64,000 nucleotides of DNA, from the IMG/VR virus record IMGVR_UViG_3300002098_000029, positions 1-64,000 of that record. One strand, given 5' to 3'. Below the pieces are notes generated by a model. That model had not been told where the DNA came from and made no database searches. It saw only the letters and a list, made by a program, of their open reading frames with translations. Position 1 is the stretch's first letter; each line of letters opens with the position of its first letter. The DNA comes from an uncultured virus (IMG/VR IMGVR_UViG_3300002098_000029). Lineage: Duplodnaviria > Heunggongvirae > Uroviricota > Caudoviricetes. The position numbers were made by a program, and so were the translations under genes. Shown piece by piece: positions 6,400-41,655 of the stretch.

Positions 6400-6933
6400 A
6401 TGACTGCACTCTCACGCCTACCACAAAATACCAATTACCTACAACCCTCAAAGTTTTTATTGACTTTTGATCGTTTAGGTGATGTTCAATACTTCTGCCA
6501 AACAGTTAACATTCCTGGTGTTAACCTAGGACAGGCACCATTTAACACACCTTTGTTGGATGTGTTTGTACCTGACCGAAAGATGATTTACAACCCATTC
6601 TCAATTCATTTTACGATTGATGAGTCATTGAACGGCTGGCAGCAATTACACGCTTGGTTCCGTTCCATCGCATCTCCAACAAGTTTTGATGAGAGGAATA
6701 GGTTAACAGCACTACAGAACGCAAACAAAACCTCTAAATCCTTAGAATCGTATTCGGATGCCACTTTGACTATTCTTTCAGCATTGAATAATCCAATACT
6801 CCGAGTAAAGTTTTATAATGTATTTCCCATCACCTTATCGGATGTTATATTCGATACCACTCAATCGGCCGATGATATTGTAACCGCAGATGCCGTGTTC
6901 ACCTTTGATTATTTTGACTTTGAACCTGCTTGA
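6400..6933 (+). CDS. gp3: Tail tube terminator / sheath stabiliser
   Basis: NYLQPSKF, YFCQTVNIPG, SDATLTILS, FPITLS; gp23-gp3-uvsY-uvsW synteny of aquatic T4-likes. Confidence 0.88.
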   Translation: MTALSRLPQNTNYLQPSKFLLTFDRLGDVQYFCQTVNIPGVNLGQAPFNTPLLDVFVPDRKMIYNPFSIHFTIDESLNGWQQLHAWFRSIASPTSFDERNRLTALQNANKTSKSLESYSDATLTILSALNNPILRVKFYNVFPITLSDVIFDTTQSADDIVTADAVFTFDYFDFEPA

Positions 6934-7044: not shown

Positions 7045-7473
7045 AATCTAGAGCAAATATTAAAAACTTGGGAATCGGATGCAGATATTGACCAGACCGA
7101 ACCTGGCAAAGAATTGTTAAAGATTCCTAAACTTCACAGTAAATACCTTGGTATACTCATTAAACACAAGATTGCTTCTAAGAAAGCCCATTTTGATTAT
7201 CTCCGTATGCGGAAGATTCGTTTGGATTATTATGGCGGAAGAATGGGACAGGAAGAATTGGAAGAATACGGATGGGAACCTTTTCAGTTTGTTCTTAAAA
7301 CAGACATCAATGCCTATCTCGAAGCCGATGCCAACCTGATTAAGTTGTTGGAGAAGAAAGTATATCATGAAGAAACTGTTGGTGTTTTGGAATCTATTAT
7401 GAATGAACTGAAACAACGGACTTGGCAACTCCGTGAATTTATTTCTTGGGAGAGATTTATTGGTGGACAATGA
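7039..7473 (+). CDS. uvsY: Recombination mediator
   Basis: IPKLHSKYL, YYGG, PFQFVLKTDINAYLEAD, RTWQLREFISWERFIGG. Confidence 0.9.
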   Translation: MENLEQILKTWESDADIDQTEPGKELLKIPKLHSKYLGILIKHKIASKKAHFDYLRMRKIRLDYYGGRMGQEELEEYGWEPFQFVLKTDINAYLEADANLIKLLEKKVYHEETVGVLESIMNELKQRTWQLREFISWERFIGGQ

Positions 7474-8203
7474 TATAGTAATCACTAAAAAGAATGAGGT
7501 ATATGCCAAACTTACTTGTGAACGGCATGTATTACAGGAACTATCAGAGCATTTTACATTCTTTGTTCCTGGTTACCAATTCGTTCCTGCTTTCCGAAAC
7601 AAAATTTGGGACGGCAAAATAAGATTATTACATTTACAAAGTTCAACAATATACCTAGGATTATTAGATTACATCGAACAGTTTGCCGAATCAAGAGGTT
7701 ATACTGTAGGTAACGAATTAAACATTGAGGATGAGTATTCATTATATCATGCCAAAAAGTTTATTAAAGAATTAAATATTCATGCTCGTGGAGAACCCAT
7801 AGAAGTAAGAGAACATCAAATCAATGCATACATTCATGCTATGCAAAAACGCCGAGCGTTACTAGTATCACCCACCGCCTCTGGTAAATCACTCATCATC
7901 TATCTAATTCATCGTCAGTTGTTGGAATACCAAGGTCTTAAAGGATTAATTGTTGTTCCCACTACTTCACTTTGTATGCAAATGAAATCGGATTTTGAAG
8001 AGTATTCATCACATAATGTGTATAATGTGGAAGATAATGTTAGTATTATAATGCAAGGATATACAAAATATCCAACAAAAAAAATAATAAAAATAACATT
8101 ATTGGATGGAACAATTAAAAAATATAAAGAACATGATGTGGTAAAAACTCAAAGAGGAAACATTTTAGCTAAAGATATTATTTCAAATGATGATATATTA
8201 TAA
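7463..8203 (+). CDS. uvsW: UvsW helicase fragment 1 (motifs I, Ia) with intein-like C-terminal tail
   Basis: GTG start overlapping uvsY; WDGKIRL, SPTASGKS, VPTTSL; stops before motif II. Confidence 0.88.
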   Translation: MDNDIVITKKNEVYAKLTCERHVLQELSEHFTFFVPGYQFVPAFRNKIWDGKIRLLHLQSSTIYLGLLDYIEQFAESRGYTVGNELNIEDEYSLYHAKKFIKELNIHARGEPIEVREHQINAYIHAMQKRRALLVSPTASGKSLIIYLIHRQLLEYQGLKGLIVVPTTSLCMQMKSDFEEYSSHNVYNVEDNVSIIMQGYTKYPTKKIIKITLLDGTIKKYKEHDVVKTQRGNILAKDIISNDDIL

Positions 8204-8239: not shown

Positions 8240-9001
8240 ATGGACACATTTAATCCAACCTATCTATACATAAAACAACACATTATAACCGGACTAAAAT
8301 ATTTTGGAAAAACAACAAAATCTGATCCATATAATTATTTGGGTTCTGGTAAAATATGGATTAGACATATTAAAAAGCACGGAAAACAACATGTAAAAAC
8401 TATATGGGTCAGTGAATTATTTTATAATAAAAATGATCTTATAAATTTTGCTTTAGATTTTTCCAAAAAAAATAATATTGTTGATTCGTCCGAATGGGCC
8501 AACCTGAAGGAAGAAAATGGATTGGATGGTGGAATATTACCAAAACAGTCATTAAATAATATTTCTAAATTATTAACAGGAAGAACCAAAGAAACCCACG
8601 ATTATATTAAAGAATCTTCTTTAAAAAAATCAAAAACAATGAAAGACCCCAACGGAAAATATCAAACTGAAGGCCGAAAAAAAATTAATCAATGGTTGAA
8701 TTCATTAACCGAGTATGATAGAAAAGAAAAATTAGGACATACTGTAACTCAAAAGCAAAAAGAAAAATTAAGTCGGGACAGAACCGGCAAAACTAAAGAA
8801 AATTGTGAACGGGTCAAAAAAATGTCCGAAACTAAAAAAGAGTATTATTCATCTTTAACTGAAGAAGAAAAAAAAGAAAAATTAGGACACTCAAAAGGTT
8901 CTCATTGGTACCACAATGATGAATTGAGATTGTGTAAAACATTCAAACCAAATAATGTGGCGGCCGGTTGGATTAGAGGCAAAAAAAAGTATGAAAATTG
9001 A
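8240..9001 (+). CDS. GIY-YIG-type homing endonuclease inside uvsW
   Basis: PTYLYIK...LKYFGKT...YLGSG; basic C-terminal repeats (GRTKE/GKTKE), HWYHN...GWIRG end. Confidence 0.87.
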   Translation: MDTFNPTYLYIKQHIITGLKYFGKTTKSDPYNYLGSGKIWIRHIKKHGKQHVKTIWVSELFYNKNDLINFALDFSKKNNIVDSSEWANLKEENGLDGGILPKQSLNNISKLLTGRTKETHDYIKESSLKKSKTMKDPNGKYQTEGRKKINQWLNSLTEYDRKEKLGHTVTQKQKEKLSRDRTGKTKENCERVKKMSETKKEYYSSLTEEEKKEKLGHSKGSHWYHNDELRLCKTFKPNNVAAGWIRGKKKYEN

Positions 9002-9803
9002 AAAAATTGAAATCTTAGAAGAAAGTCCTAGTATAATTATATCCACTTGGCAGTCATTATATAAAATGCCAAAAGAATATTTTGAACAGTTTGACTATGT
9101 GATTGGTGATGAAGCTCATTTATTCAAAGCACAATCACTTACCACAATTCTCACCTCTTGTATCAATGCCAAATACCGTATTGGTCTTACTGGCACGCTC
9201 GATGGCACCAAAACACACAAACTCGTATTAGAAGGTTTATTTGGTCCAGTTAAAAAGGTAATTACTACAAGAGAGTTAATCGACAAAGATCAGGTATCAA
9301 ACTTTGAAATTAAATGTTTGGTGTTAAAGCATTCGGATGAAATCTGTTTGAGAATGAAAGACAGCACCTATCCAGAAGAAATTCAATACCTGATTGCAAA
9401 TGAGGCAAGAAATAAATTCATTAAGAATCTTGCAGTTAGCTTAGGAAAAAACACTTTGGTACTATATCAAATGGTTGACAAACATGGCAAAATACTGTAT
9501 GATATGATTAAGAACACCGAGAAAATTGGTGAAAGAAAAGTGTTCTTTGTCCACGGAGGAACGGACACCGTAGATAGAGAAGAAATTAGAAGAATTATGG
9601 AATTTTGTAAAGAAGATACTATATTTTTAGATTTCGATGATTATGAAATAATACTCGATCCAAATGAACCTATAGATTTGGTTAATAAATTACAAAAAAA
9701 AGCTAGAGATATTACAGAAAATGATGATATTGATACCAGTATTCTTATAAATAATATACAGACATCAATATTAAAAGGTTATGTATGGAAAAAGAAAAGT
9801 TAA
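8991..9803 (+). CDS. uvsW: UvsW helicase fragment 2 (motifs Ib-IV) with intein-like head and tail
   Basis: ATG 8991 overlapping endonuclease stop; ISTWQS, GDEAH, GLTGT, FFVHGGT. Confidence 0.88.
   Translation: MKIEKIEILEESPSIIISTWQSLYKMPKEYFEQFDYVIGDEAHLFKAQSLTTILTSCINAKYRIGLTGTLDGTKTHKLVLEGLFGPVKKVITTRELIDKDQVSNFEIKCLVLKHSDEICLRMKDSTYPEEIQYLIANEARNKFIKNLAVSLGKNTLVLYQMVDKHGKILYDMIKNTEKIGERKVFFVHGGTDTVDREEIRRIMEFCKEDTIFLDFDDYEIILDPNEPIDLVNKLQKKARDITENDDIDTSILINNIQTSILKGYVWKKKS
9746..9753 (+). promoter_or_regulatory. Late promoter for HNH endonuclease
   Basis: TATAAATA 31 nt upstream of ATG 9785. Confidence 0.7.
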
Positions 9804-15691: not shown

Positions 15692-16263
15692 GTGATTTGA
15701 TTACATTTAATACAGAAGATGCCTTACAACCAAAAGGAATAGTTCCACAACAAGTACCCATTTTTAATTTGGTATCAGAAGAACATTCAATCCTAAGAGA
15801 AGTAATGCCTGAATTTGATTTTGATAAACCACCGGTAAATCCAAACCAGTTTGCTTCTTCCTTGGTAGAGACCTGTAAGATGCATCACGGATATGGACTA
15901 TCTGCAAATCAATGTGGATTCAAATATCGTGTGTTCGTAATGGGTGCTGAAGATAGCTATGTGGCATTCTTTAATCCTAGTATTGTACTAAAATCGAAAG
16001 CAGAAGTGCATATGGTAGAAGGTTGCCTTTCATTTCCATTTTTAGGATTAAGAATTACACGACCAGAAGAAATTTCGGTAACATACCAAGATTTTAACGG
16101 AGAGTGGAAACAAACCACACTTATTGGTATATCTGCTCGAGCATTTCAACATGAGCTTGATCATTTGAATGGAATAGTGTATACTAGTCGTTGTAAGCCA
16201 GTAGCATTACAATCTGGCATAAAGAAACGCAACAAAATTATGAAGAATTTGAGAATACGTTAA
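15688..16263 (+). CDS. def: Peptide deformylase
   Basis: GLSANQ, EGCLS, QHELDH. Confidence 0.94.
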   Translation: MSDLITFNTEDALQPKGIVPQQVPIFNLVSEEHSILREVMPEFDFDKPPVNPNQFASSLVETCKMHHGYGLSANQCGFKYRVFVMGAEDSYVAFFNPSIVLKSKAEVHMVEGCLSFPFLGLRITRPEEISVTYQDFNGEWKQTTLIGISARAFQHELDHLNGIVYTSRCKPVALQSGIKKRNKIMKNLRIR

Positions 16264-17528
16264 TGGCAACACCTCCAGAATTTGTAGAAAAACAATGGTT
16301 GGAATGGAAAGAATCCAATCCTACAGAGAAGTTCAAACACATCGATAAAGAAGAACTTACCGAAATTGTTATCAAAGATTTAACTTATGCTTCACAAATG
16401 GATGTCCGTGAATATACTTTATACCAAAAATGGTGTGAAGTAAAAGAACGATATCCTGTGGAAGAAGTTTCGACTTTGTTTGGTCCTGAAATTCAAATGG
16501 TTTCTCCAGAACAAAAGAAATTGGTTGATAAGGTCAAGGCAAACTTTTGGATGCCAACTGAACCTGATGATTACCTAAAATTAAAACCAGTAATGAAGTT
16601 ACACAATGGTGAGTTAGCCGAAACATGGAATGCCATTCGTACATTTACTTCTACAATGAAGAATAACAGTAACATTGGTCGTAATTTATTCTATACAGTA
16701 GAAGATGAAGTTACCGGTAAATATCTTGGAGTTATCTGTATCTCCTCAGACTTCTTAGACTTGACTCCAAGAGATAAGGCGATTGGATGGGCTAGAGATG
16801 TTAAGACACAACAAGGAATGATTAATCACACCGCAATCGGTTCTACAATCGTTCCATTACAACCACTTGGTTGGAACTACACAGGTGGAAAGTTGTTAGC
16901 CTTATTATGTTTATCTGATACAGTTCAAAAAGATTGGAAAGAAAGATATGGTGATGTTCTTGTTGGTGTAACCACAACTTCTCTTTATGGTAAAACTAAA
17001 GTTGGTGGACTATCACAATATGATGGACTAGAACATTGGAATGCCATGGGTTTCTCCTCAGGTTCTGTGGCATTTGAACCATCGAGAGCAACTAAGTCAA
17101 TGTTGTTCGATTGGATTAAAGAAACTGAACCTCGTAAATATTTTGAATGGTGGGCAGCTAAGAATCAACAAGGACTTCCACTTAAGCGAGATCACAAGAA
17201 TCGTTCATTGAATTTTGCTTATCCAAAACTTGGTATACCAAAACAATTGATTCGTACCGAACACCAACGAGGTATTTACTTTGCACCACTTTATAATAAC
17301 ACCAACGAATATCTCCGTAAAGAAATTACGGATGCAGATTTGGTAAAATCATTCGATACTTCGGAAGAAGCATTATCCGAAATATGGAAAACAAAATATG
17401 CAAAAGGCCGTATTCGGCAATTACAAAAGAAGAATACCGTTTCCTACGAAACTCTTTTCTATGACGATTTGATTTATTTGTCATGGAAAGATACCAAAGC
17501 GAAATATTTACCACAAGTTGGGAGATAA
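16263..17528 (+). CDS. DUF4338/DruA-like protein
   Basis: GSTIVPLQPLGWNYTGGKLLALLC, TTTSLYG, SQYDG. Confidence 0.65.
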   Translation: MATPPEFVEKQWLEWKESNPTEKFKHIDKEELTEIVIKDLTYASQMDVREYTLYQKWCEVKERYPVEEVSTLFGPEIQMVSPEQKKLVDKVKANFWMPTEPDDYLKLKPVMKLHNGELAETWNAIRTFTSTMKNNSNIGRNLFYTVEDEVTGKYLGVICISSDFLDLTPRDKAIGWARDVKTQQGMINHTAIGSTIVPLQPLGWNYTGGKLLALLCLSDTVQKDWKERYGDVLVGVTTTSLYGKTKVGGLSQYDGLEHWNAMGFSSGSVAFEPSRATKSMLFDWIKETEPRKYFEWWAAKNQQGLPLKRDHKNRSLNFAYPKLGIPKQLIRTEHQRGIYFAPLYNNTNEYLRKEITDADLVKSFDTSEEALSEIWKTKYAKGRIRQLQKKNTVSYETLFYDDLIYLSWKDTKAKYLPQVGR

Positions 17529-24215: not shown

Positions 24216-24814
24216 TGATACCCCGTAAATTAAATAATTTTATCGACAAAGATAACCTCAAACTACATTTCATTAAAGACCTTGTAGGTAATGATAGACG
24301 GCTTCGCTTTGGTGGTTCTCTTAGTGATGAAGCTATTGAAACCTATTTGAAATCTTCTTTTGTGGATTTTGGTATTAACAATATGTGGTTTATTGTTGAT
24401 ATTGAATCACCAGAAACTTTTGGTCGTAAAGTTGTGGCTACTTGTCATGTAAATTATGATTACAAAACAAATACAGCAGAACTAGGATTAACGGTTAGTC
24501 CCGATTACCGTAACCAGAAAATCGGGCAAGAATTATATAATCGTGGTGTAACATGGGCTCGTATGAAAGGTGCTGAAACCATCTTCATGCATTGTCTATC
24601 TGAAAACAAAACGATGCAACATATTGCTCGCAAAGCCGGTATGACTGTTATTACACTTGACCCAACCGAAAAACAATCTTCAATCAAAGTTGATAAAAAT
24701 CAGGTTGTTGCTGGATTTGAAGATTCAGTTTATGAACAAATGGCAGTTTATGATATGTTGGTACGAAATCAGAAATGGTTCTTTACTAGTTTTATGAAAA
24801 TGTTTAAGAAATGA
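24215..24814 (+). CDS. GNAT-family acetyltransferase
   Basis: RRLRFG, AELGLTVSPDYRNQKIG, N..MQHIARKAG. Confidence 0.85.
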   Translation: MIPRKLNNFIDKDNLKLHFIKDLVGNDRRLRFGGSLSDEAIETYLKSSFVDFGINNMWFIVDIESPETFGRKVVATCHVNYDYKTNTAELGLTVSPDYRNQKIGQELYNRGVTWARMKGAETIFMHCLSENKTMQHIARKAGMTVITLDPTEKQSSIKVDKNQVVAGFEDSVYEQMAVYDMLVRNQKWFFTSFMKMFKK

Positions 24815-25245
24815 AACAAAAGTTTATTGACGCTTACATGGATGTAGCAAAGAGATTTGCACAATTATCATCCGCTAAAAGATTACAGGTGGGTGCGATT
24901 GTAGTAAAGGATGATAGAATTGTTTCGATTGGTTACAACGGAATGCCGTCTGGTTGGGATAATGGTTGTGAGAACATATTAGAAGATGGCACAACCAAAA
25001 CCAAACCTGAGGTGATTCATGCGGAAGCTAATTGTATTGCGAAATTAGCTAAGAGTTCTGAGTCTGGTGATGGATCCACAATGTTTTTAACTCACGCACC
25101 TTGTATCGATTGCGCCAAACAGATTTACACGGCTGGCATAAATAAAGTATATTATAATCAAAACTATAGAGATACTTTAGGCATTGATTTCCTTAAAAAG
25201 TGTAACGTAAAGGTAGAACAATGCAAGGCTGGGGAAAACACCTAA
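24811..25245 (+). CDS. cd: dCMP deaminase
   Basis: HAEAN and PCIDC zinc motifs, GYNG. Confidence 0.92.
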   Translation: MKQKFIDAYMDVAKRFAQLSSAKRLQVGAIVVKDDRIVSIGYNGMPSGWDNGCENILEDGTTKTKPEVIHAEANCIAKLAKSSESGDGSTMFLTHAPCIDCAKQIYTAGINKVYYNQNYRDTLGIDFLKKCNVKVEQCKAGENT

Positions 25246-25580: not shown

Positions 25581-25650
25581 ATAAATAAAGGTTGTGAGTA
25601 TTAACGGAGATATGCAATTATTGGGTCAACTTATTAAGGAGAGACCTAAA

Positions 25651-26154
25651 ATGCAGTTAAGTATAGTCGGTTGTCCCGATAAACAGCGTTTCCGTCCCTA
25701 TGTTAGAAGGGCTGCTCTTTTTTACGCCAACGAACTCATGAAACCTAAGATGTTAGAAAACATCTATCTTAGAATCAAATTCAACAGTAAAATAAATGTT
25801 TACGGATATGCTGAAATTTTAGAATATAATGAAAGTCGTAAAGCAAGAGAATTTGAAATAGAATTAAACCCAAACATTGGAGCAGCAGAAATTCTGAAAT
25901 GTTTGGCACATGAAATGACACATATTAAACAATATGCCTATAATGAAACCAACGAAACATTAACTCGTTGGAAAGGTAGAAAAGTTGATTCCGATAATAT
26001 GGATTATTGGATTCAACCTTGGGAAATAGAAGCCTTTGGTACTGAAGTAGGATTATTTGCAAAGTTTGCCATCAAAGAAAAACTTTGGGATGTATTTTAC
26101 GGAATACAAAATCCCGATGGACCAATAGAAATAGAAGAATTGGGTTGGAAATAA
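25651..26154 (+). CDS. Zincin-like metallopeptidase
   Basis: AHEMTH (HExxH), QPWEIEA; AAGGAG SD before ATG 25651. Confidence 0.75.
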   Translation: MQLSIVGCPDKQRFRPYVRRAALFYANELMKPKMLENIYLRIKFNSKINVYGYAEILEYNESRKAREFEIELNPNIGAAEILKCLAHEMTHIKQYAYNETNETLTRWKGRKVDSDNMDYWIQPWEIEAFGTEVGLFAKFAIKEKLWDVFYGIQNPDGPIEIEELGWK

Positions 26155-26163
26155 ATTCAATAG

Positions 26164-26215
26164 TGTTGTTTCCACACAACACCATGGTTGACAAACAAAT
26201 TTAAACCTGTATAAT
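26164..26215 (+). promoter_or_regulatory. Palindrome TGTTGT-N6-ACAACA followed by sigma70-like promoter P1 of tRNA region
   Basis: Palindrome 26164-26181; TTGACA(26188)-16 nt-TATAAT(26210). Confidence 0.7.
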
Positions 26216-26266: not shown

Positions 26267-26295
26267 TTGACAAATGAGCATATATACTGTATAAT
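26267..26295 (+). promoter_or_regulatory. Consensus sigma70 promoter P2 of tRNA region
   Basis: TTGACA-17 nt-TATAAT. Confidence 0.85.
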
Positions 26296-26332: not shown

Positions 26333-26434
26333 ATGTTGTTTGTAACGAAACCTTTATCCATGCAGTCAGAGTATCGCACACCGAGTAATTGGTCAGCGAT
26401 TGGCTTTGACCATGTTTTCGGGGTTCGTGTATAG
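26333..26434 (+). CDS. Putative attenuator leader peptide (33 aa)
   Basis: MLFVTKPLSMQSEYRTPSNWSAIGFDHVFGVRV*; same GAAAGAAATAAAATG start context as gp55; 3' end overlaps antiterminator arm. Confidence 0.65.
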   Translation: MLFVTKPLSMQSEYRTPSNWSAIGFDHVFGVRV

Positions 26435-26495
26435 AACAAATGTAATTCTCTTTCACACACGAACCCGATTCTAAACAAATCGGGTTTTTTGTTTT
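26421..26495 (+). terminator. Mutually exclusive antiterminator/terminator (attenuator)
   Basis: GGGTTCGTGT(26421)/ACACGAACCC(26457) versus AACCCGATT(26462)/AATCGGGTT(26478)+TTTTGTTTT. Confidence 0.8.
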
Positions 26496-28135: not shown

Positions 28136-28209
28136 TGCGGGTTGTAATAGATACCGCTCGGTCTCATAAGCCGATGTCGAAGATGGAGCATTACCATCGC
28201 CCGCAACCA
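28136..28209 (+). tRNA. Atypical tRNA-Met(CAT), initiator-like acceptor, reduced D arm
   Basis: TGCGGGT/GCCCGCA-A-CCA, TCGGT-CTCATAA-GCCGA, T loop AGCATTA. Confidence 0.7.
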
Positions 28210-28916: not shown

Positions 28917-29393
28917 ATGAAAAAGATAGATTTAGTAGAAGTTAAAAGATTCATTGAAGCACAATCTGAAGATACTAAAATTTATCTTGGTGCTGACTCT
29001 GAAAGATTTGAAATTAAAGGTGTATGGTACGCAGATTATACTCTTGCTGTTGTTGTTCACATTGATGGTTGCCATGGTTGCAAAATCTTTGGTGAAGTAT
29101 CAAGAGAAAGAGATTATGACCAAAAGAAAAATAAACCTTCAATTCGTTTAATGAATGAAGTTTATAAAGTTGCTGATTTATTTCAGGCATTATCTGACGT
29201 ATTGGAAGACCGTTATGTTGAAGTACATTTAGATATTAACCCAAATGAATTGTATGGTTCATCTTGTGTGGTTCAACAAGCAATTGGTTATATCAAAGGT
29301 ACCTGTAATGTTACACCTATGGTTAAACCAAAAGCGTTTGCTGCTTCATATGCGGCAGATAGATTAAAGTTTGTGTTAGCAGAAGCAGCATAA
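28917..29393 (+). CDS. RNase H-like protein (YkuK/DUF458-like)
   Basis: IYLGADS, RLMNEV, EVHLDIN, KPKAFAASYAADR. Confidence 0.8.
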   Translation: MKKIDLVEVKRFIEAQSEDTKIYLGADSERFEIKGVWYADYTLAVVVHIDGCHGCKIFGEVSRERDYDQKKNKPSIRLMNEVYKVADLFQALSDVLEDRYVEVHLDINPNELYGSSCVVQQAIGYIKGTCNVTPMVKPKAFAASYAADRLKFVLAEAA

Positions 29394-29400
29394 AGTATTT

Positions 29401-29473
29401 GCGGGTATGCACGAGGTGTGTCGCCAGCCTTCCAAGCTGTGTAGTAGGAGTTCGAATCTCCTTACCCGCTCCA
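29401..29473 (+). tRNA. tRNA-Gly(TCC)
   Basis: GCGGGTA/TACCCGC-T-CCA, CTTCCAA loop. Confidence 0.88.
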
Positions 29474-29874: not shown

Positions 29875-29950
29875 GCAACTTTAGCTGATGTGGTCATAGC
29901 GGTGGTTTGAAGAACCATTGAACCAAGTTCGATCCTTGGAGGTTGCACCA
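29875..29950 (+). tRNA. tRNA-Phe(GAA)
   Basis: GTGGT-TTGAAGA-ACCAT, CCA. Confidence 0.9.
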
Positions 29951-29968
29951 AAATTTAGAAAGTTTATT

Positions 29969-31168
29969 ATGATATTAGATATTAAAAATGTAAAAATGTG
30001 GACTGGTGATATGGATATTGAGCAAGCAGCCCAAGATCAAATTCGTAACATCGCTGCTTTGCCAATTTTAGCTGGACACATGGCAATTATGCCAGATGTA
30101 CATATGGGTAAAGGTGCTACTGTTGGTTCAGTTATTCCAACTCGTAATGCAATCATACCAGCCGCAGTAGGTGTTGATATTGGTTGTGGTATGTGTGCTG
30201 TTATGACTAACTTAACTGCATCCGACTTACCAGATTCCTTAACATCATTGCGTAATAGTATTGAACGTGGAGTACCAGTAGGTTTTAATGAACATAGTCG
30301 TAGTTCAATTAAAGTAAAAGGTGCAGCTGCCGATAAATTACGCCAAGCTGAAATGAAAATGTTTCAACGATGGGATAAATTAGTATTAAAGAAAAAATTA
30401 GGTCGTGCTGATCCATATAAAATTGCAAATCAAATTGGAACTTTAGGAGGTGGAAATCACTTCATTGAAATCTGTTTAGATTCGGAAGACCGAGTATGGG
30501 TTATGTTACATTCTGGTTCCCGTGGTATTGGCAATCAAATTGGTACTGTTGCCATCGAAATGGCCAAAGAAATTGCTATTCGTGAACAACGTAAGTTAGT
30601 AGATTCTGATTTGGCTTGGCTAGATGAAGGCACTGCTGAATTTAATGCTTATATTGAAGCAATGCATTGGGCTCAGGATTACGCTATGCTTAATCGTGAT
30701 ACCATGATGCAAATTGTATTGGAAAATTTACGACACAAATTTCCAAAGATGAAAACTCTCGGAGAAATTGTAAACTGTCACCACAATTTTACTAACTTAG
30801 AAAACCATTTTGGTGAAGATATGTGGGTTACTCGTAAAGGTGCAGTTTCGGCTCGTGAAGGACAAATGGGAATTATTCCAGGTTCAATGGGTGCAAAATC
30901 TTTTATCGTAATGGGTAAAGGTAATCATGACGCCTATTGTTCTTGTTCACACGGAGCAGGTCGTAAAATGAGTCGTAATGCTGCAAAGAAATATTTTACA
31001 GTAGAAGATTTATCATTACAAACTATAGGTGTTGAATGTCGTAAAGACGATGGTGTTCTGGATGAAATTCCAGGTGCATATAAAGATATTGACCAAGTTA
31101 TGGATGCCCAAAAAGAATTGGTTGATATTGTTCACACTTTAAAACAAGTAATGTGTATTAAAGGTTAG
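29969..31168 (+). CDS. rtcB: RtcB RNA ligase
   Basis: MPDVHMG, VGVDIGCGM, GTLGGGNHFIE, HSGSRG, SHGAGR, DEIPGAYK; ATG 29969. Confidence 0.95.
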   Translation: MILDIKNVKMWTGDMDIEQAAQDQIRNIAALPILAGHMAIMPDVHMGKGATVGSVIPTRNAIIPAAVGVDIGCGMCAVMTNLTASDLPDSLTSLRNSIERGVPVGFNEHSRSSIKVKGAAADKLRQAEMKMFQRWDKLVLKKKLGRADPYKIANQIGTLGGGNHFIEICLDSEDRVWVMLHSGSRGIGNQIGTVAIEMAKEIAIREQRKLVDSDLAWLDEGTAEFNAYIEAMHWAQDYAMLNRDTMMQIVLENLRHKFPKMKTLGEIVNCHHNFTNLENHFGEDMWVTRKGAVSAREGQMGIIPGSMGAKSFIVMGKGNHDAYCSCSHGAGRKMSRNAAKKYFTVEDLSLQTIGVECRKDDGVLDEIPGAYKDIDQVMDAQKELVDIVHTLKQVMCIKG

Positions 31169-31331: not shown

Positions 31332-31347
31332 AGCTTGACAATAGTAT

Positions 31348-31422
31348 CTGGCGTTAGTATAATGGACAATACAGTAGGCTTCTACCCTTCTGATGGGAGT
31401 TCGATTCTCTCACGCCAGACCA
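31348..31422 (+). tRNA. tRNA-Arg(TCT)
   Basis: GTAGG-CTTCTAC-CCTTC, CCA. Confidence 0.87.
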
Positions 31423-31521: not shown

Positions 31522-31550
31522 TTGACATTTAACATACATAAGTATATAAT
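31522..31550 (+). promoter_or_regulatory. Consensus sigma70 promoter
   Basis: TTGACA-17 nt-TATAAT. Confidence 0.85.
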
Positions 31551-31626: not shown

Positions 31627-31696
31627 GCGGTGTGTAGATAGAACAGTTTAGGATACCCTCTTAAAAAACTTTGTGCAAACCAAAGGCACCGCTCCA
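31627..31696 (+). ncRNA. tRNA-like RNA A (Gly-type acceptor, reduced D arm)
   Basis: GCGGTGT/GCACCGC-T-CCA; CTTTG-TGCAAAC-CAAAG T arm; AGGATACCCTCTT central hairpin. Confidence 0.7.
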
Positions 31697-31721
31697 AATT
31701 TATTGATTAGAGGACTATATT

Positions 31722-31937
31722 ATGGCAACAAAAGGTACGAATCAAAGAACTCGTAAGGCAAATCCAATGTTAACCAAAACTGGCAAGACCCGTTTAGGTC
31801 CTTTGAACATCAAACAATTATCAAAACTGTTAGATGGTGCCCGTAAGAAACATATTCCTAAGATTAAGAAAGCTATTGCAAAACGTTTACAGACCCAAAA
31901 ATTTGGTAAGGACGCAGAGCCAGTAGCTTCAGAATGA
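31722..31937 (+). CDS. Small basic hypothetical protein
   Basis: GAGGA SD; NPMLTKTGKTRLGPLN. Confidence 0.7.
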   Translation: MATKGTNQRTRKANPMLTKTGKTRLGPLNIKQLSKLLDGARKKHIPKIKKAIAKRLQTQKFGKDAEPVASE

Positions 31938-32074
31938 AAAAGAAAAAAGACGAAGTTGTAGAAGAAATAAAATCTAATACATCGCCTTCTTGGGGTAGAA
32001 TGTTGACCAAAAAAGAATTACTTGATATGCTTGATAGAATTTATGCCAAGCAAAAAGAGAAAAAAGAAAAGTAA
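31934..32074 (+). CDS. Small hypothetical protein (46 aa, not in ORF track)
   Basis: ATGA coupling; MKKKKDEVVEE...WGRMLTKKELLDMLDRIY. Confidence 0.55.
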   Translation: MKKKKDEVVEEIKSNTSPSWGRMLTKKELLDMLDRIYAKQKEKKEK

Positions 32075-32078
32075 CAAT

Positions 32079-32145
32079 GCGGAGTGTAATAGTACGATTC
32101 AGGATACCCTCTTGAATTATCTGAGCATAGCAGAACTCCGCTCCA
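32079..32145 (+). ncRNA. tRNA-like RNA B (Gly-type acceptor, reduced D arm)
   Basis: GCGGAGT/ACTCCGC-T-CCA; GATTCAGGA-TACCC-TCTTGAATT; TCTG-AGCATAG-CAGA. Confidence 0.7.
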
Positions 32146-32149
32146 GTAT

Positions 32150-32367
32150 TCATTATTGAGAATGTGAACGAAAGAGTAAGCAATCCTAACTGTTAAGGAA
32201 GATCACAATCCTGTAAGACCCACTCTAGCTTAGAGAACACTGCATGCTAAGGCAGTTTGGCGAACACAGGAGAATTGGTAGCAAGGTTCATGAATTAAGT
32301 AGTGAATGACCTTAAACGTCTAACTACTACACGGTTCTTAAACACAAAACAGTATTCTCAATAATGA
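32150..32367 (+). ncRNA. Unidentified ~218-nt spacer RNA 6
   Basis: TCATTATTGAGAAT/ATTCTCAATAATGA 14-bp closing stem, several internal hairpins. Confidence 0.6.
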
Positions 32368-32381
32368 CTATATAATTCTAT

Positions 32382-32456
32382 AGCGGGGTCGCATAAAGGT
32401 ATTGCACCGGACTCATAATCCGGGTTTTGTTGGTTCGAGTCCAGCCCCCGCAACCA
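32382..32456 (+). tRNA. tRNA-fMet(CAT)-like
   Basis: A1:A72 mismatch, GCGGGG/CCCCGC, CCGGA-CTCATAA-TCCGG. Confidence 0.87.
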
Positions 32457-32816: not shown

Positions 32817-32890
32817 GCGGGATTAGTTTAATGGCAAAACTGTAGGTTTCCAACCTTCCGTTATTGGTTCGATTCCAATATCCCGCTCCA
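32817..32890 (+). tRNA. tRNA-Gly(TCC), second copy
   Basis: GCGGGAT/ATCCCGC-T-CCA, TTTCCAA loop. Confidence 0.9.
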
Positions 32891-39201: not shown

Positions 39202-40546
39202 CGAGGACTATTTAAGAAAAGTATTACCATTTATTAAACCTGAATATTTCTCGGACAGAACCGAGAGGACACTATTTAATGAGATTACTTCCTTCACGGA
39301 AACTTACAATTCTACGGCAACGATTGAAGCGTTGTCTATTGCCGTCAAGGAAAAGAACAATCTTTCGGATGATGAAGTTCAGAAATGCGAAGATTATATC
39401 AAGGAAATTGAAAGTAATCGTCAAACAGAAACCGAGGTACAATGGCTTATTGATAAGACCGAGCAGTTTTGCCAAGAAAAGGCGATATACAATGCTGTAT
39501 TGGGGTCTATTTCAATTCTCGATGGTAAAGACAAAAACAACGATAAGGGTGCGATACCCAAGATATTATCGGACGCTTTGGCCGTCAGTTTCGATACAAC
39601 CGTAGGCCATGATTACTTAGAGAACTCAGATGATCGATATGAATTTTACCACAGAAAAGAAGAAAGAATTCCCTTTGATCTCGATTGTTTTAACAAAATT
39701 ACAAAAGGTGGACTTCCTGCTAAGACTCTCAATATTGCTCTTGCTGGTACTGGTGTTGGTAAATCTTTGTTTATGTGCCATGTTGCTGCAGGTGCTATGG
39801 TACAAGGTAAAAATGTATTGTATATTACTCTTGAAATGGCGGAAGAAAAGATTGCCGAAAGAATAGATGCAAACTTGTTGAATGTTTCCCTCGATGATTT
39901 GATGGACTTACCAAAAGATATGTATGATAAAAAGGTTGCTCGGGTCAAAGAGAAAACCACAGGTAAACTCATCATCAAAGAATATCCAACAGCATCAGCT
40001 TCCACCACTCACTTTAGGACTTTACTAAATGAACTTAATCTCAAAAGGTCTTTCGTACCTGATATTATTTTTATTGATTATCTCAATATCTGTTGCTCTT
40101 CTCGTATCAAGGCTGGTGCGAATATTAACTCTTACACTTACGTTAAGTCCATCGCAGAGGAACTTAGGGGTCTTGCGGTTGAACATAATGTTCCTATTGT
40201 ATCTGCAACTCAAACTACCAGAAGCGGATTCACATCGAGTGATCCAGGCTTGGAGGATACGAGTGAGTCATTCGGGTTGCCTGCAACCGCCGATTTAATG
40301 TTTGCTTTGATTTCTTCTGAAGAATTGGAAGAAATGGGTCAGATGATGGTTAAACAATTGAAGAATCGATATAATGATCCGTCTTATTACAAACGATTTA
40401 CTATTGGTGTTGATAGAGCAAAGATGAAATTGTTTGATGTGGAACAATCCGCACAACAAGGTATTGCTGATGCTGGCCACCAAGGAATTGGGGCTCATAA
40501 TAAAATTAAACATGATAAGAAGAACTTTGAAGGCTTTAAAGTATAA
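39161..40546 (+). CDS. gp41: Replicative helicase
   Basis: LAGTGVGKS, ITLEM, IDYLNI, SATQTTR, SESFGLPATAD. Confidence 0.97.
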   Translation: MKLELSILKNLVYNEDYLRKVLPFIKPEYFSDRTERTLFNEITSFTETYNSTATIEALSIAVKEKNNLSDDEVQKCEDYIKEIESNRQTETEVQWLIDKTEQFCQEKAIYNAVLGSISILDGKDKNNDKGAIPKILSDALAVSFDTTVGHDYLENSDDRYEFYHRKEERIPFDLDCFNKITKGGLPAKTLNIALAGTGVGKSLFMCHVAAGAMVQGKNVLYITLEMAEEKIAERIDANLLNVSLDDLMDLPKDMYDKKVARVKEKTTGKLIIKEYPTASASTTHFRTLLNELNLKRSFVPDIIFIDYLNICCSSRIKAGANINSYTYVKSIAEELRGLAVEHNVPIVSATQTTRSGFTSSDPGLEDTSESFGLPATADLMFALISSEELEEMGQMMVKQLKNRYNDPSYYKRFTIGVDRAKMKLFDVEQSAQQGIADAGHQGIGAHNKIKHDKKNFEGFKV

Positions 40547-41655
40547 TGGAATTAACTAGAGACCAAGCATTATATGTATCAAAGGTATTCAATGATTATT
40601 TTAGTAACATTGGAAGTACCGAAGAATACATGCGTGATGAGAAGTTGAAAAATCTTGAGAATATGCCTTCTTCTTTGTTTCCACCGGAAGATGATTTGTT
40701 CTCCGATTTTTCTATGCACCCAAAGGATATGGACATTGAGGTATTGGAGATTCCAGGTTCTCAATTTGAAACATTACTTGCCATTACCAGTTCACATATT
40801 AATAAAGCACCCGTTGGTAAGAATGTTCAATTGGCAGTTAGAGAAAAGAACTCAGGAAAGATTCTAGGATTCATTCGGTTAGGTTCACCAGTCATCTATA
40901 TGAAACCCCGAAATGAACTCTTGGGGCAAGTTTGGATCCAACAGGAAGATACAGCCAAACGCTTTAATACTGCTACGATGATGGGATTCGTTATTGTACC
41001 AGCACAACCATTTGGATTTAATTACCTTGGCGGTAAACTTCTATCTGCTATTTGTACCAGTCATACAGTCAGAGAAATCTGCAATAAAAAATATGATATG
41101 AACTTGTGTTTATTTGAAACCACCAGTTTGTATGGTACAACCAAATCAGTATCACAATACGATGGTATGAAACCTTATATTCGTTTCCGTGGATTAACCG
41201 AATCTGATATGGTACCCATGATGCACGGACAAAGATACCATGACTTGAAGAATTATGTGGAGAATATTACTGGAGATTTATTAGCAGGTGATACATCAAG
41301 TACCAGTAGAAAACTAAGAACCTTTACCAAGATTATTGCTCTCACCAAAGCGGCCTTAAAAGGAACAACCGAAGGTGATGAGTTTAATGTAACGATTGAG
41401 AACGCTAAAAAGTTGACCGAGAAGAAAAGGTATTATACATCCGATTTTGGGTATAATAACACCGTGGATTATATGAATTGTAAAACGGACACATTGGTAC
41501 CTGGTCCCAATTACGAGAAACATGAATTGAGTAACATCATTGAGTGGTGGCGGAGTAAAGCTATAAATAGATACGAAACTCTCAAATCTGAGGGTAGATT
41601 GAGGACAGAACTTGAAATCTGGACTTCAGGTAAAGAAATTCAAATCATACGATAA
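40546..41655 (+). CDS. Second DUF4338/DruA-like protein
   Basis: GFVIVPAQPFGFNYLGGKLLSAIC, ETTSLYG, SQYDG. Confidence 0.65.
   Translation: MELTRDQALYVSKVFNDYFSNIGSTEEYMRDEKLKNLENMPSSLFPPEDDLFSDFSMHPKDMDIEVLEIPGSQFETLLAITSSHINKAPVGKNVQLAVREKNSGKILGFIRLGSPVIYMKPRNELLGQVWIQQEDTAKRFNTATMMGFVIVPAQPFGFNYLGGKLLSAICTSHTVREICNKKYDMNLCLFETTSLYGTTKSVSQYDGMKPYIRFRGLTESDMVPMMHGQRYHDLKNYVENITGDLLAGDTSSTSRKLRTFTKIIALTKAALKGTTEGDEFNVTIENAKKLTEKKRYYTSDFGYNNTVDYMNCKTDTLVPGPNYEKHELSNIIEWWRSKAINRYETLKSEGRLRTELEIWTSGKEIQIIR

Follow-up and report, generated by a model that had tools for sequence, protein, structure and literature searches.

Two short elements at positions 31627 to 32145 of a stretch of DNA from an uncultured Caudoviricetes virus carry the acceptor end of a glycine transfer RNA (tRNA) on a body with a reduced D arm, which raises the question of what such an RNA is and whether it reads codons. 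The stretch, hereafter the window, is the first 64 kilobases (kb; 64,000 nucleotides, nt) of the 76.6-kb IMG/VR record IMGVR_UViG_3300002098_000029, whose CheckV completeness is ~45%. A first-pass annotation made from the letters of the window had proposed two paralogous tRNA-like RNAs with Gly identity and a possible ACC anticodon. We find that these mini tRNA-Gly look-alikes, here called mini-RNAs, are a large, previously undescribed RNA family of uncultured T4-like lake phages. They occur in two structural types, A and B. Both window copies belong to type A, and a third element in the same tRNA cluster, which we call the CAT sibling, shares part of their architecture:

31627-31696, plus strand: copy 1, an atypical 70-nt type A member, with acceptor strands at 31627-33 and 31686-92 and the D replacement at 31634-44
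31647-53 paired with 31659-65, plus strand: stem of the copy 1 hairpin, capped by the pentaloop TACCC at 31654-58
31669-85, plus strand: T arm of copy 1, loop TGCAAAC, followed by U73 at 31693 and CCA at 31694-96
32079-32145, plus strand: copy 2, a typical 67-nt type A member, with acceptor strands at 32079-85 and 32135-41 and the mini D hairpin GTA-ATAG-TAC at 32086-95
32096-104 paired with 32110-18, plus strand: 9-base-pair (bp) stem of the copy 2 hairpin, capped by the pentaloop TACCC at 32105-09
32120-34, plus strand: T arm of copy 2, loop AGCATAG, followed by U73 at 32142 and CCA at 32143-45
28136-28209, plus strand: the CAT sibling, a mini-D tRNA with a normal CUCAUAA anticodon loop (CAU), mini D hairpin GTA-ATAGA-TAC and T loop AGCATTA

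The positions and lengths first assigned to the two RNAs were recovered exactly, and their kinship as paralogues is supported. In both, an acceptor of the form GCGG.../...CCGC is followed by U73 and an encoded CCA, as in the ordinary tRNA-Gly(UCC) genes at 29401 and 32817, and the D arm is replaced by a segment of 10-11 nt. The T arm was correctly described as lacking TTCG, since the loops TGCAAAC and AGCATAG stand where the other window tRNAs have TTCGA-type loops. The same 13-nt hairpin top, AGGATACCCTCTT, recurs in both copies on stems that differ but compensate, as had been noticed. Likewise borne out is the resemblance to the CAT sibling, which has in common with the mini-RNAs the motif GTAATAG(A)TAC and an AGCAT T loop; in acceptor and anticodon stem it is similar to the initiator-like tRNA-Met at 32382. 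A strict scanner requiring an acceptor, a T arm and CCA found only three un-annotated elements within the tRNA cluster, namely copy 1, copy 2 and the 28136 element; given this and the hundreds of homologues in the family described below, the mini-RNAs are far beyond chance. Copy 1 is identical in seven relatives (L035, L014, L244, L249, L255, L258, and L259) and copy 2 in three (L034, L256, and L259). In another relative, G050, the CAT sibling has U1xU72 in place of U1-A72, and a diverged variant with a covarying T stem occurs in L669 and L681; 5 of 117 pattern matches to this sibling were genuine.

Standard annotation does not see these genes. ARAGORN in standard mode called neither copy, and Rfam, at the gathering score and at E<=10, gave no family match to either copy, with no match to the tRNA family RF00005 even at E<=10. 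In the mitochondrial mode of ARAGORN, type A copies 1 and 2 were again not called, whereas type B members and the CAT sibling were called as D-loop tRNAs, the sibling as a D-loop tRNA-Met. Our literature search found no account of a phage mini-D tRNA-Gly-like RNA. The main text of a paper cataloguing 10,006 candidate phage RNAs (PMC10690425) mentions tRNA-like candidates but not this RNA; the catalogue itself may contain it.

Conservation, whose absence had been named at the outset as grounds for abandoning the idea, proved extensive. A scan of IMG/VR with a pattern built on the acceptor ends and D motif (scan 1) returned at least 120 loci, and the 123 matches listed (89 type A, 34 type B) comprise 81 distinct sequences, almost all 66-71 nt long. 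A second scan of the same database (scan 2), anchored only on the D loop and T loop with the ends left free, likewise returned at least 120 loci. T4-like phages carry the family: of 28 large records with the RNA, 24 encode the gp23 capsid protein. Beyond uncultured viruses the family was not encountered; blastn with one sequence of each type against 50,697 cultured-phage records gave no match, nor did the window region match there, and a pattern scan of ~186,000 prokaryote genomes gave 80 pattern matches, none family-like. Scans that rely on the hairpin loop proved less specific. Of 25 loci from a metagenome scan keyed to the loop and 3' end, 8 are genuine; an exact-loop scan of IMG/VR with TNAGGATACCCTCTTNA gave 40 loci, only 4 of them genuine and all from near-identical relatives; and the looser pattern ATAGNACN{3,10}GGATACCC gave chance matches among those listed, with no match to the family model R1 at E<0.09. 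When relatives selected by their RtcB RNA ligase were searched over their whole records with models R1 and R2, 3 of 49 matched, one of the three being an ordinary tRNA-Gly, and the family appeared only in near relatives.

To what fold does this conservation apply? For type A we aligned 57 distinct sequences with MAFFT on sequence only, namely window copy 2 together with 56 of 59 type-A-like ones; L438, L461 and the copy-1-type sequence L442:1050, which differ in length, were left out together with L397, and L421 and L473 were excluded as chance matches of the wrong length. A fold made up of an acceptor stem of 6-7 bp, a mini D hairpin of 3 bp, a long stem of 9 bp and a T stem of 4-5 bp pairs 95.6% of cells and is equaled by 0 of 500 shuffles, a control that takes no account of relatedness; slid-register controls, which do not ignore relatedness, reached a far lower 30-59% paired. 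Double changes occur at 14 of 23 pairs (159 cells). Acceptor pairs 1-4 are invariant and pairs 5-6 covary, and the long stem shows compensatory change in 8 of its 9 pairs above a basal G.U present in 57 of 57 sequences. The D region had been called vestigial; it is indeed reduced, but it is a covariation-supported hairpin, with a 3-bp stem whose third pair is A-U in 36 and G-C in 21 sequences with no mispair, and an AUAG(A) loop without the GG of the canonical G18G19 loop. The T loop reads W-G-C-A-W-A-G in type A and T-G-C-R-A-A-T in type B, with no TTC. Type B has a fold of its own (20 sequences, 94.5% paired, 0 of 500 shuffles as good), with a 7-8 bp stem and the loop UGUCCAA in 19 sequences and UGUCCAG in the remaining one, so that G33 is present in 20 of 20. 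We also considered whether the 3' strand of the hairpin pairs with Shine-Dalgarno-like or other targets and rejected this, as loop complements number 16 in the window against 13.5 expected and the strand varies with compensation.

The fold bears directly on the anticodon. The first-pass annotation had read the top of the hairpin as a 7-nt loop, ATACCCT, with anticodon ACC. However, the bases at tRNA positions 32 and 38 covary as a Watson-Crick pair (A-U in 41 type A sequences, G-C in 15, other in 1), and the hairpin is therefore capped by a pentaloop, not by a 7-nt anticodon loop.

What remains constant is a different set of features. Among the 120 matches listed from scan 2, 119 start with GCGG and end with CCGC-T-CCA, the remaining one being a chance match; although the ends were unanchored, G1-C72, C2-G71, G3-C70, U73 and the encoded CCA are present in 119 of 119 members listed, as is CC at loop positions 3-4, with variable neighboring loop bases (TACCC 61, TTCCC 24, CACCC 19, TACCA 5, TCCCA 5, TCCCC 2, TACCT 2, TGCCC 1). 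The identity set of bacterial glycyl-tRNA synthetase (GlyRS) is given in PMC7826273 as G1-C72, C2-G71, U73, C35 and C36. The invariant ends and loop CC amount to this set plus G3-C70, and the proposal of Gly identity is thus strongly supported as a reading of the sequences. The two types also divide their length differently, with a 9-bp stem and a 3-bp D stem in type A but stems of 7-8 and 3 bp and additional linkers in type B, yet reach a similar total, which would fit selection that holds the spacing of the CC from the CCA end constant, a span of the kind that a synthetase would gauge.

Does an RNA with glycine identity then decode? It had been suggested that the mini-RNAs read GGU, and we considered the possibility of a structurally non-canonical tRNA-Gly (anticodon NCC, mostly ACC, reading GGU) that works on the host ribosome. 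Codon usage invites it, as GGT makes up 61% of Gly codons in 53 open reading frames (ORFs) of the window phage and 29 of 38 in its capsid gene, and tRNA-Gly(GCC) is absent both from this phage and from G050, which holds the whole cluster; U33, C35 and C36 would be present if a 7-nt loop were assumed. The idea stays alive because bacterial machinery tolerates such shapes, a D-arm-less tRNA being accepted by E. coli HisRS, EF-Tu and the ribosome according to PMC11551756, and because the CAT sibling, with its perfectly normal anticodon loop, looks like a decoder. However, besides the pairing at 32-38, position 37 is mostly a pyrimidine, usually C, the "wobble" position 34 varies among A, U, C and G even between positional orthologues, and every type B sequence has G33. 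Phages G063 and G069 (both complete) and G070 (73% complete) moreover have tRNA-Gly(GCC) and tRNA-Gly(UCC) alongside one type A gene, which in G070 lies 7 nt upstream of tRNA-Gly(GCC), and ARAGORN fails on type A even in its mitochondrial mode. With a pentaloop in type A or G33 in type B, the mini-RNA would be unable to act as a normal codon reader. We consider GGU decoding quite unlikely; without it, the GGT bias and the absent GCC gene are not explained by the mini-RNA.

The position of these genes points to where they came from. Two ordinary glycine tRNAs of the window serve as references:

32817-32890, plus strand: canonical tRNA-Gly(UCC), called by ARAGORN and Rfam, the closest normal relative of the mini-RNA family and the top non-self match to model R1 (18.7 bits)
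29401-29473, plus strand: second tRNA-Gly(UCC), with a normal T loop, called by ARAGORN and by Rfam (41.8 bits)

In L035 and L014, the position of copy 2 is taken by a 70-nt type B gene (loop UGUCCAA, T loop TGCGAAT, 3-bp D stem) 7 nt upstream of a normal tRNA-Gly(UCC), and in G050 a type A variant sits in the same position, 8 nt upstream of tRNA-Gly(UCC). The main difference between type B and the anticodon arm of the adjoining tRNA-Gly(UCC) is U33G. After the mini-RNAs themselves, the next best match to the family model in the window is the tRNA-Gly at 32817. From the shared position beside tRNA-Gly(UCC) and this ranking, it follows that types A and B are positional homologues; derivation of the family from tRNA-Gly(UCC), with type B as an intermediate, is supported by these comparisons. 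The tRNA-Gly(UCC) at 29401-29473, whose short D arm can be read from the sequence as a 3-bp stem (CAC/GTG) with a GG-containing loop, looks like a structural intermediate between a normal tRNA-Gly and type B.

The mini-RNAs appear to be genes with their own transcription signals and recurrent neighbors. The elements nearest to the two copies are as follows:

31522-31550, plus strand: sigma-70-type promoter TTGACA-17-TATAAT, 12/12 consensus, 76 nt upstream of copy 1
31722-31937, plus strand: ORF71, encoding a small basic protein directly downstream of copy 1, with a homologue downstream of the RNA in 45 of 120 loci listed
31934-32074, plus strand: ORF46, a small ORF between the copies, with a homologue within 600 nt downstream in 7 and upstream in 10 of 120 loci listed

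Perfect 12/12 TTGACA/TATAAT promoters occur at four places in the tRNA cluster, all on the plus strand (26188-26215, 26267-26295, 31335-31363, and 31522-31550), and similar promoter sites precede the elements in L034 and L277. Across the matches listed, 65 of 89 type A and 30 of 34 type B genes are preceded, within 130 nt, by a sigma-70-type site with at least 10 of 12 consensus matches; for scale, and with no formal control, only 6 sites of that quality occur on both strands of the window's 7.4-kb cluster. Of the matches listed, 25 of 89 in type A and 6 of 34 in type B have a tRNA-Gly(UCC) no more than 60 nt downstream, and 2 of 89 in type A are followed by a tRNA-Gly(GCC). In L262, a stand-alone type A variant lies behind its own consensus promoter outside any tRNA cluster, downstream of a 63%-identity orthologue of the window gene at 16263-17528, which encodes a DruA (Druantia) domain; homologues of this gene precede the mini-RNA in 15 of 120 loci listed. 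The DruA domain is found in two proteins of the window phage, encoded at 16263-17528 and 40546-41655. Another recurrent upstream neighbor, in 54 of 120 loci listed, is a homologue of the window ORF at 25594-26154, which contains an HExxH motif.

The module of promoter, RNA and ORF71 is kept in G052 (82% complete, 3 Rfam tRNA matches) and G072 (69% complete, 2 matches), in whose analyzed stretches ARAGORN reports tRNA types Met and Thr but no Gly. The mini-RNA is thus more persistent than the tRNA set, and it is independent of the tRNA-Gly gene complement. This persistence bears on the simplest deflationary account, that the elements are functionless, decaying duplicates of tRNA-Gly. They are indeed tRNA-derived, missed by tRNA finders, often placed beside tRNA-Gly genes and marked by some acceptor mismatches, but pseudogenes would hardly keep 95% pairing through 159 double changes over 81 distinct sequences in at least 120 loci, keep their loops invariant, have promoters of their own in most copies and be retained in phages nearly without tRNAs; we regard this account as highly implausible.

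The neighboring genes raise a further possibility, that the mini-RNA serves mainly in RNA processing or as a leader. Shaped like a tRNA, it would punctuate early polycistronic transcripts by bringing in RNase P and 3' nucleases to cut them and so would free or stabilize downstream mRNAs (ORF71 and others), tRNAs or the adjoining region X (a structured RNA described below), or it would regulate ORF71 in cis. The RNA is promoter-proximal at most loci, the ORF71 homologues follow it after a conserved short spacer, the two window copies flank ORF71 and ORF46 with copy 2 abutting region X, and other small-ORF cassettes of the cluster are also flanked by tRNAs. Yet RNase P needs only the acceptor/T helix, and here the long stem is maintained by compensation, while the loop CC, the basal G.U, and the D and T loops are invariant. 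The downstream genes are also diverse (by eye, and with no family-library search, they include GroES-, rubrerythrin- and HNH-endonuclease-like ORFs), and punctuation does not require the Gly identity set found in every member listed. We judge a mainly processing or leader role unlikely. ORF71 itself belongs to no Pfam or PHROG family, and its 124 homologue clusters are nearly all unnamed or "hypothetical protein," two having other automatic names. One homologue, P0116, with 61% identity across 68% of the query, appears in NCBI within a genome record assigned to Polynucleobacter, which may hint at a host or at phage DNA within a Polynucleobacter assembly.

Starting from the observed fold, conservation pattern, promoters and distribution, we infer the following course for processing, charging and exclusion from decoding. 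A tandem duplication of tRNA-Gly(UCC) would have been followed by compaction into a conserved phage RNA family, retaining the acceptor/T-arm helix and encoded CCA while the D arm shrank to a 3-bp hairpin with an AUAG loop, the T loop became W-G-C-A-W-A-G, and the anticodon arm turned into a stem of 9 bp (7-8 bp in type B) below a pentaloop in which CC is invariant. The RNA would be transcribed early in infection from its own near-consensus sigma-70 promoter and excised like a tRNA, with RNase P cutting at G1 and 3' trimming to the encoded CCA. Recognition, and probably glycylation, by host GlyRS is proposed because the Gly identity set is invariant and the CC lies at a roughly tRNA-like distance from the CCA end. 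Off the decoding pathway, the mini-RNA could then compete with (Gly-)tRNA-Gly for a binding factor or lure that factor away as a decoy, or it could carry glycine to a non-ribosomal reaction; glycyl donors and nuclease decoys had both been suggested in the first-pass annotation. That the mini-RNA is such a tRNA-Gly mimic, excised like a tRNA, recognized and probably charged by host GlyRS, and excluded from decoding, is the reading that we tentatively favor, and we put it at not quite an even chance.

Several observations weigh against this mimic. The CC is displayed in a pentaloop rather than a 7-nt loop and may not be readable there by GlyRS, and the invariant acceptor end could reflect inheritance together with the constraints of processing enzymes. 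Within the acceptor stem, 40 of 57 type A sequences have a mismatch at the seventh pair (7-66) and 19 of 20 type B sequences have one at pair 6-67; together with a T stem of 4 bp, such mismatches may hinder GlyRS, EF-Tu or RNase P in recognizing the RNA. Nor is the family universal among close relatives: R2 matches 2 of 10 records chosen by capsid similarity alone, and two capsid-chosen records that are at least 96% complete (capsids 79% and 63% identical) are without it. Contigs from RNA libraries of relatives cover the elements and a type B variant, but these may be DNA or long transcripts, and contig depth cannot rank genes. Finally, no aminoacyl-tRNA-dependent transferase, Fem-type included, no aminoacyl-tRNA synthetase and no other obvious partner turned up with Pfam, run on 75+45 ORF translations of the 76.6-kb record (~45% of the genome), or with PHROGs.

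A more specific version of the mimic can be framed, in which the promoter-driven, GlyRS-charged, non-decoding mini tRNA serves either as a sacrificial decoy, shielding Gly-tRNA-Gly and initiator tRNA from toxins or defense enzymes that attack aminoacyl-tRNAs or tRNA ends, or as a private glycine donor outside the ribosome; the rarer initiator-Met-type sibling on the same mini-D scaffold would be included. Taken as a whole, this version strikes us as improbable, but if true it would describe a natural aminoacyl-RNA that is not a cloverleaf and has a task other than translation, the first of its kind in a bacterial system apart from Gram-positive cell-wall synthesis.

How do the mini-RNAs compare with known RNAs? 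Canonical tRNA-Gly(UCC), as at 32817-32890 in the window or in T4, resembles them in its GCGG../..CCGC acceptor, U73, CCA, anticodon-equivalent CC and adjacency, and canonical tRNA-Gly is the best non-self match of the family model (18.7-30 bits), which also picks T4 tRNA-Gly. The mini-RNA differs in having neither a normal D arm nor a TTC T loop and in having a 9-bp stem with a pentaloop instead of 5 bp with a 7-nt loop. A partial parallel is offered by the non-proteogenic tRNA-Gly of Staphylococcus, which, according to PMC7826273, retain the GlyRS identity set, replace the TTC of the T loop by TGC or TGT and are excluded from translation. In the phage family, TGC occurs in copy 1 and type B, and A/T-G-C in type A. 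The staphylococcal species form complete cloverleaves, have a 7-nt anticodon loop with UCC and serve FemXAB, whereas the mini-RNAs are compacted and belong to T4-like phages, with no Fem-like gene found in the 76.6-kb record (~45% of the genome).

Altered T loops seem common in phage tRNA clusters. Other phages with RtcB have CCA-encoding, tRNA-shaped genes with non-TTC T loops (e.g., TGCAATT, GGCAGAA) that ARAGORN misses:

L108, 3685-3759, minus strand: ARAGORN-missed gene with a non-TTC T loop
L086, 1235-1309: another such gene
L062, 4323-4396: another such gene
L098, 1330-1403, minus strand: another such gene
L093, 625-698, minus strand: another such gene

The metazoan mitochondrial tRNAs that lack a D arm and the engineered "mini HisT" of E. 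coli likewise combine a short D replacement and an extended anticodon stem with a tRNA-like length, but they decode with a normal 7-nt loop where type A has a pentaloop. T4 rnaC and rnaD (species 1 and 2) are similar in that they are small and stable, have no known function and are encoded next to the tRNA genes of a T4-type phage; however, they are 139 and 119 nt long, with no Gly-type acceptor plus CCA in the annotated sequence. In the T4 tRNA region searched with R1 and filters off, only tRNA-Gly reached E 0.019, rnaC scored 6.4 bits, and no sequence or structure match to rnaC or rnaD was found. A heptamer in common with T4 rnaD, CCCUCUU, we take as chance, given that the 3' strand of the hairpin varies with compensation across the family. 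The tRNA-like domain of transfer-messenger RNA, plant-virus tRNA-like structures and bacterial YrlA are charged or processed, non-decoding tRNA mimics. With the mini-RNA they have in common the concept of an acceptor/T-arm module on a non-decoding remainder; size, architecture and Gly identity differ.

According to a 2024 paper (PMC11551756), every known bacterial tRNA is a canonical cloverleaf. Here, a natural, abundant and covariation-supported family in bacterial viruses departs from the cloverleaf and keeps the complete identity set of one synthetase, and a recurrent RNA gene of environmental T4-like phages escapes standard tRNA and Rfam annotation. For GlyRS, RNase P, the CCA enzyme and EF-Tu alike, the mini-RNA is a natural experiment in how much of a tRNA can be dispensed with; it points to an unknown tRNA-linked activity in phage infection, whether decoy, donor or regulator, and its compact scaffold is of possible use in orthogonal tRNA engineering.

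The record of the source phage contains the T4 core set by Pfam (gp20, gp21, gp22, gp23, UvsY, UvsW, UvsX, gp45, gp44/62, RegA, gp43, and gp41), and its capsid protein is at most 66% identical to that of any cultured phage, the top matches being the Methylophilales phage Melnitz, Pelagibacter phages and cyanophages. The public runs that contain window DNA are freshwater and lake metagenomes, and the hosts of the carriers are probably Gram-negative freshwater bacteria. ARAGORN finds 25 tRNAs clustered at 26.5-32.9 kb, every one with an encoded CCA, and inside this cluster lie two protein genes that suggest tRNA repair:

28917-29393 and 29918-31168, inside the tRNA cluster: genes for an RNaseH_like (PF04308) protein and an RtcB RNA ligase

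The deaminase encoded at 24811-25245 falls in the cytidine/deoxycytidine monophosphate (dCMP) deaminase Pfam family, and its motifs are by eye dCMP-type, not TadA-like. The UvsW helicase gene is seemingly split, with 7433-8203 encoding UvsW_N and the first half of the DEAD domain and 8955-9803 the remaining helicase domain; between them lies an unassigned ORF of 253 aa (8240-9001), and the arrangement could reflect an intron, an intein or a homing insertion. A 67-nt segment at 26346-26412, which lies downstream of the two 26.2-kb promoters and has a CCA end and weak acceptor-like pairing, is followed by a terminator-like hairpin (26461-26487); the segment is kept in G050 (6490-6556) with one change and may be a further small RNA.

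The remaining element adjoins copy 2 directly:

32146-32381, plus strand: region X, a structured non-coding RNA between copy 2 and the tRNA-Met, closed by a 16-bp helix and containing internal loops that are conserved and hairpins that covary

Rfam gives only a noise-level match to region X (RT-2, E 2.9). Across four sequences, 9 of its 34 pairs show compensatory change. Its conserved ends are covered in relatives by short RNA-library contigs with high word depths (503, 322 and 293), which is only a hint, and region X may be this lineage's counterpart of the T4 stable RNAs.

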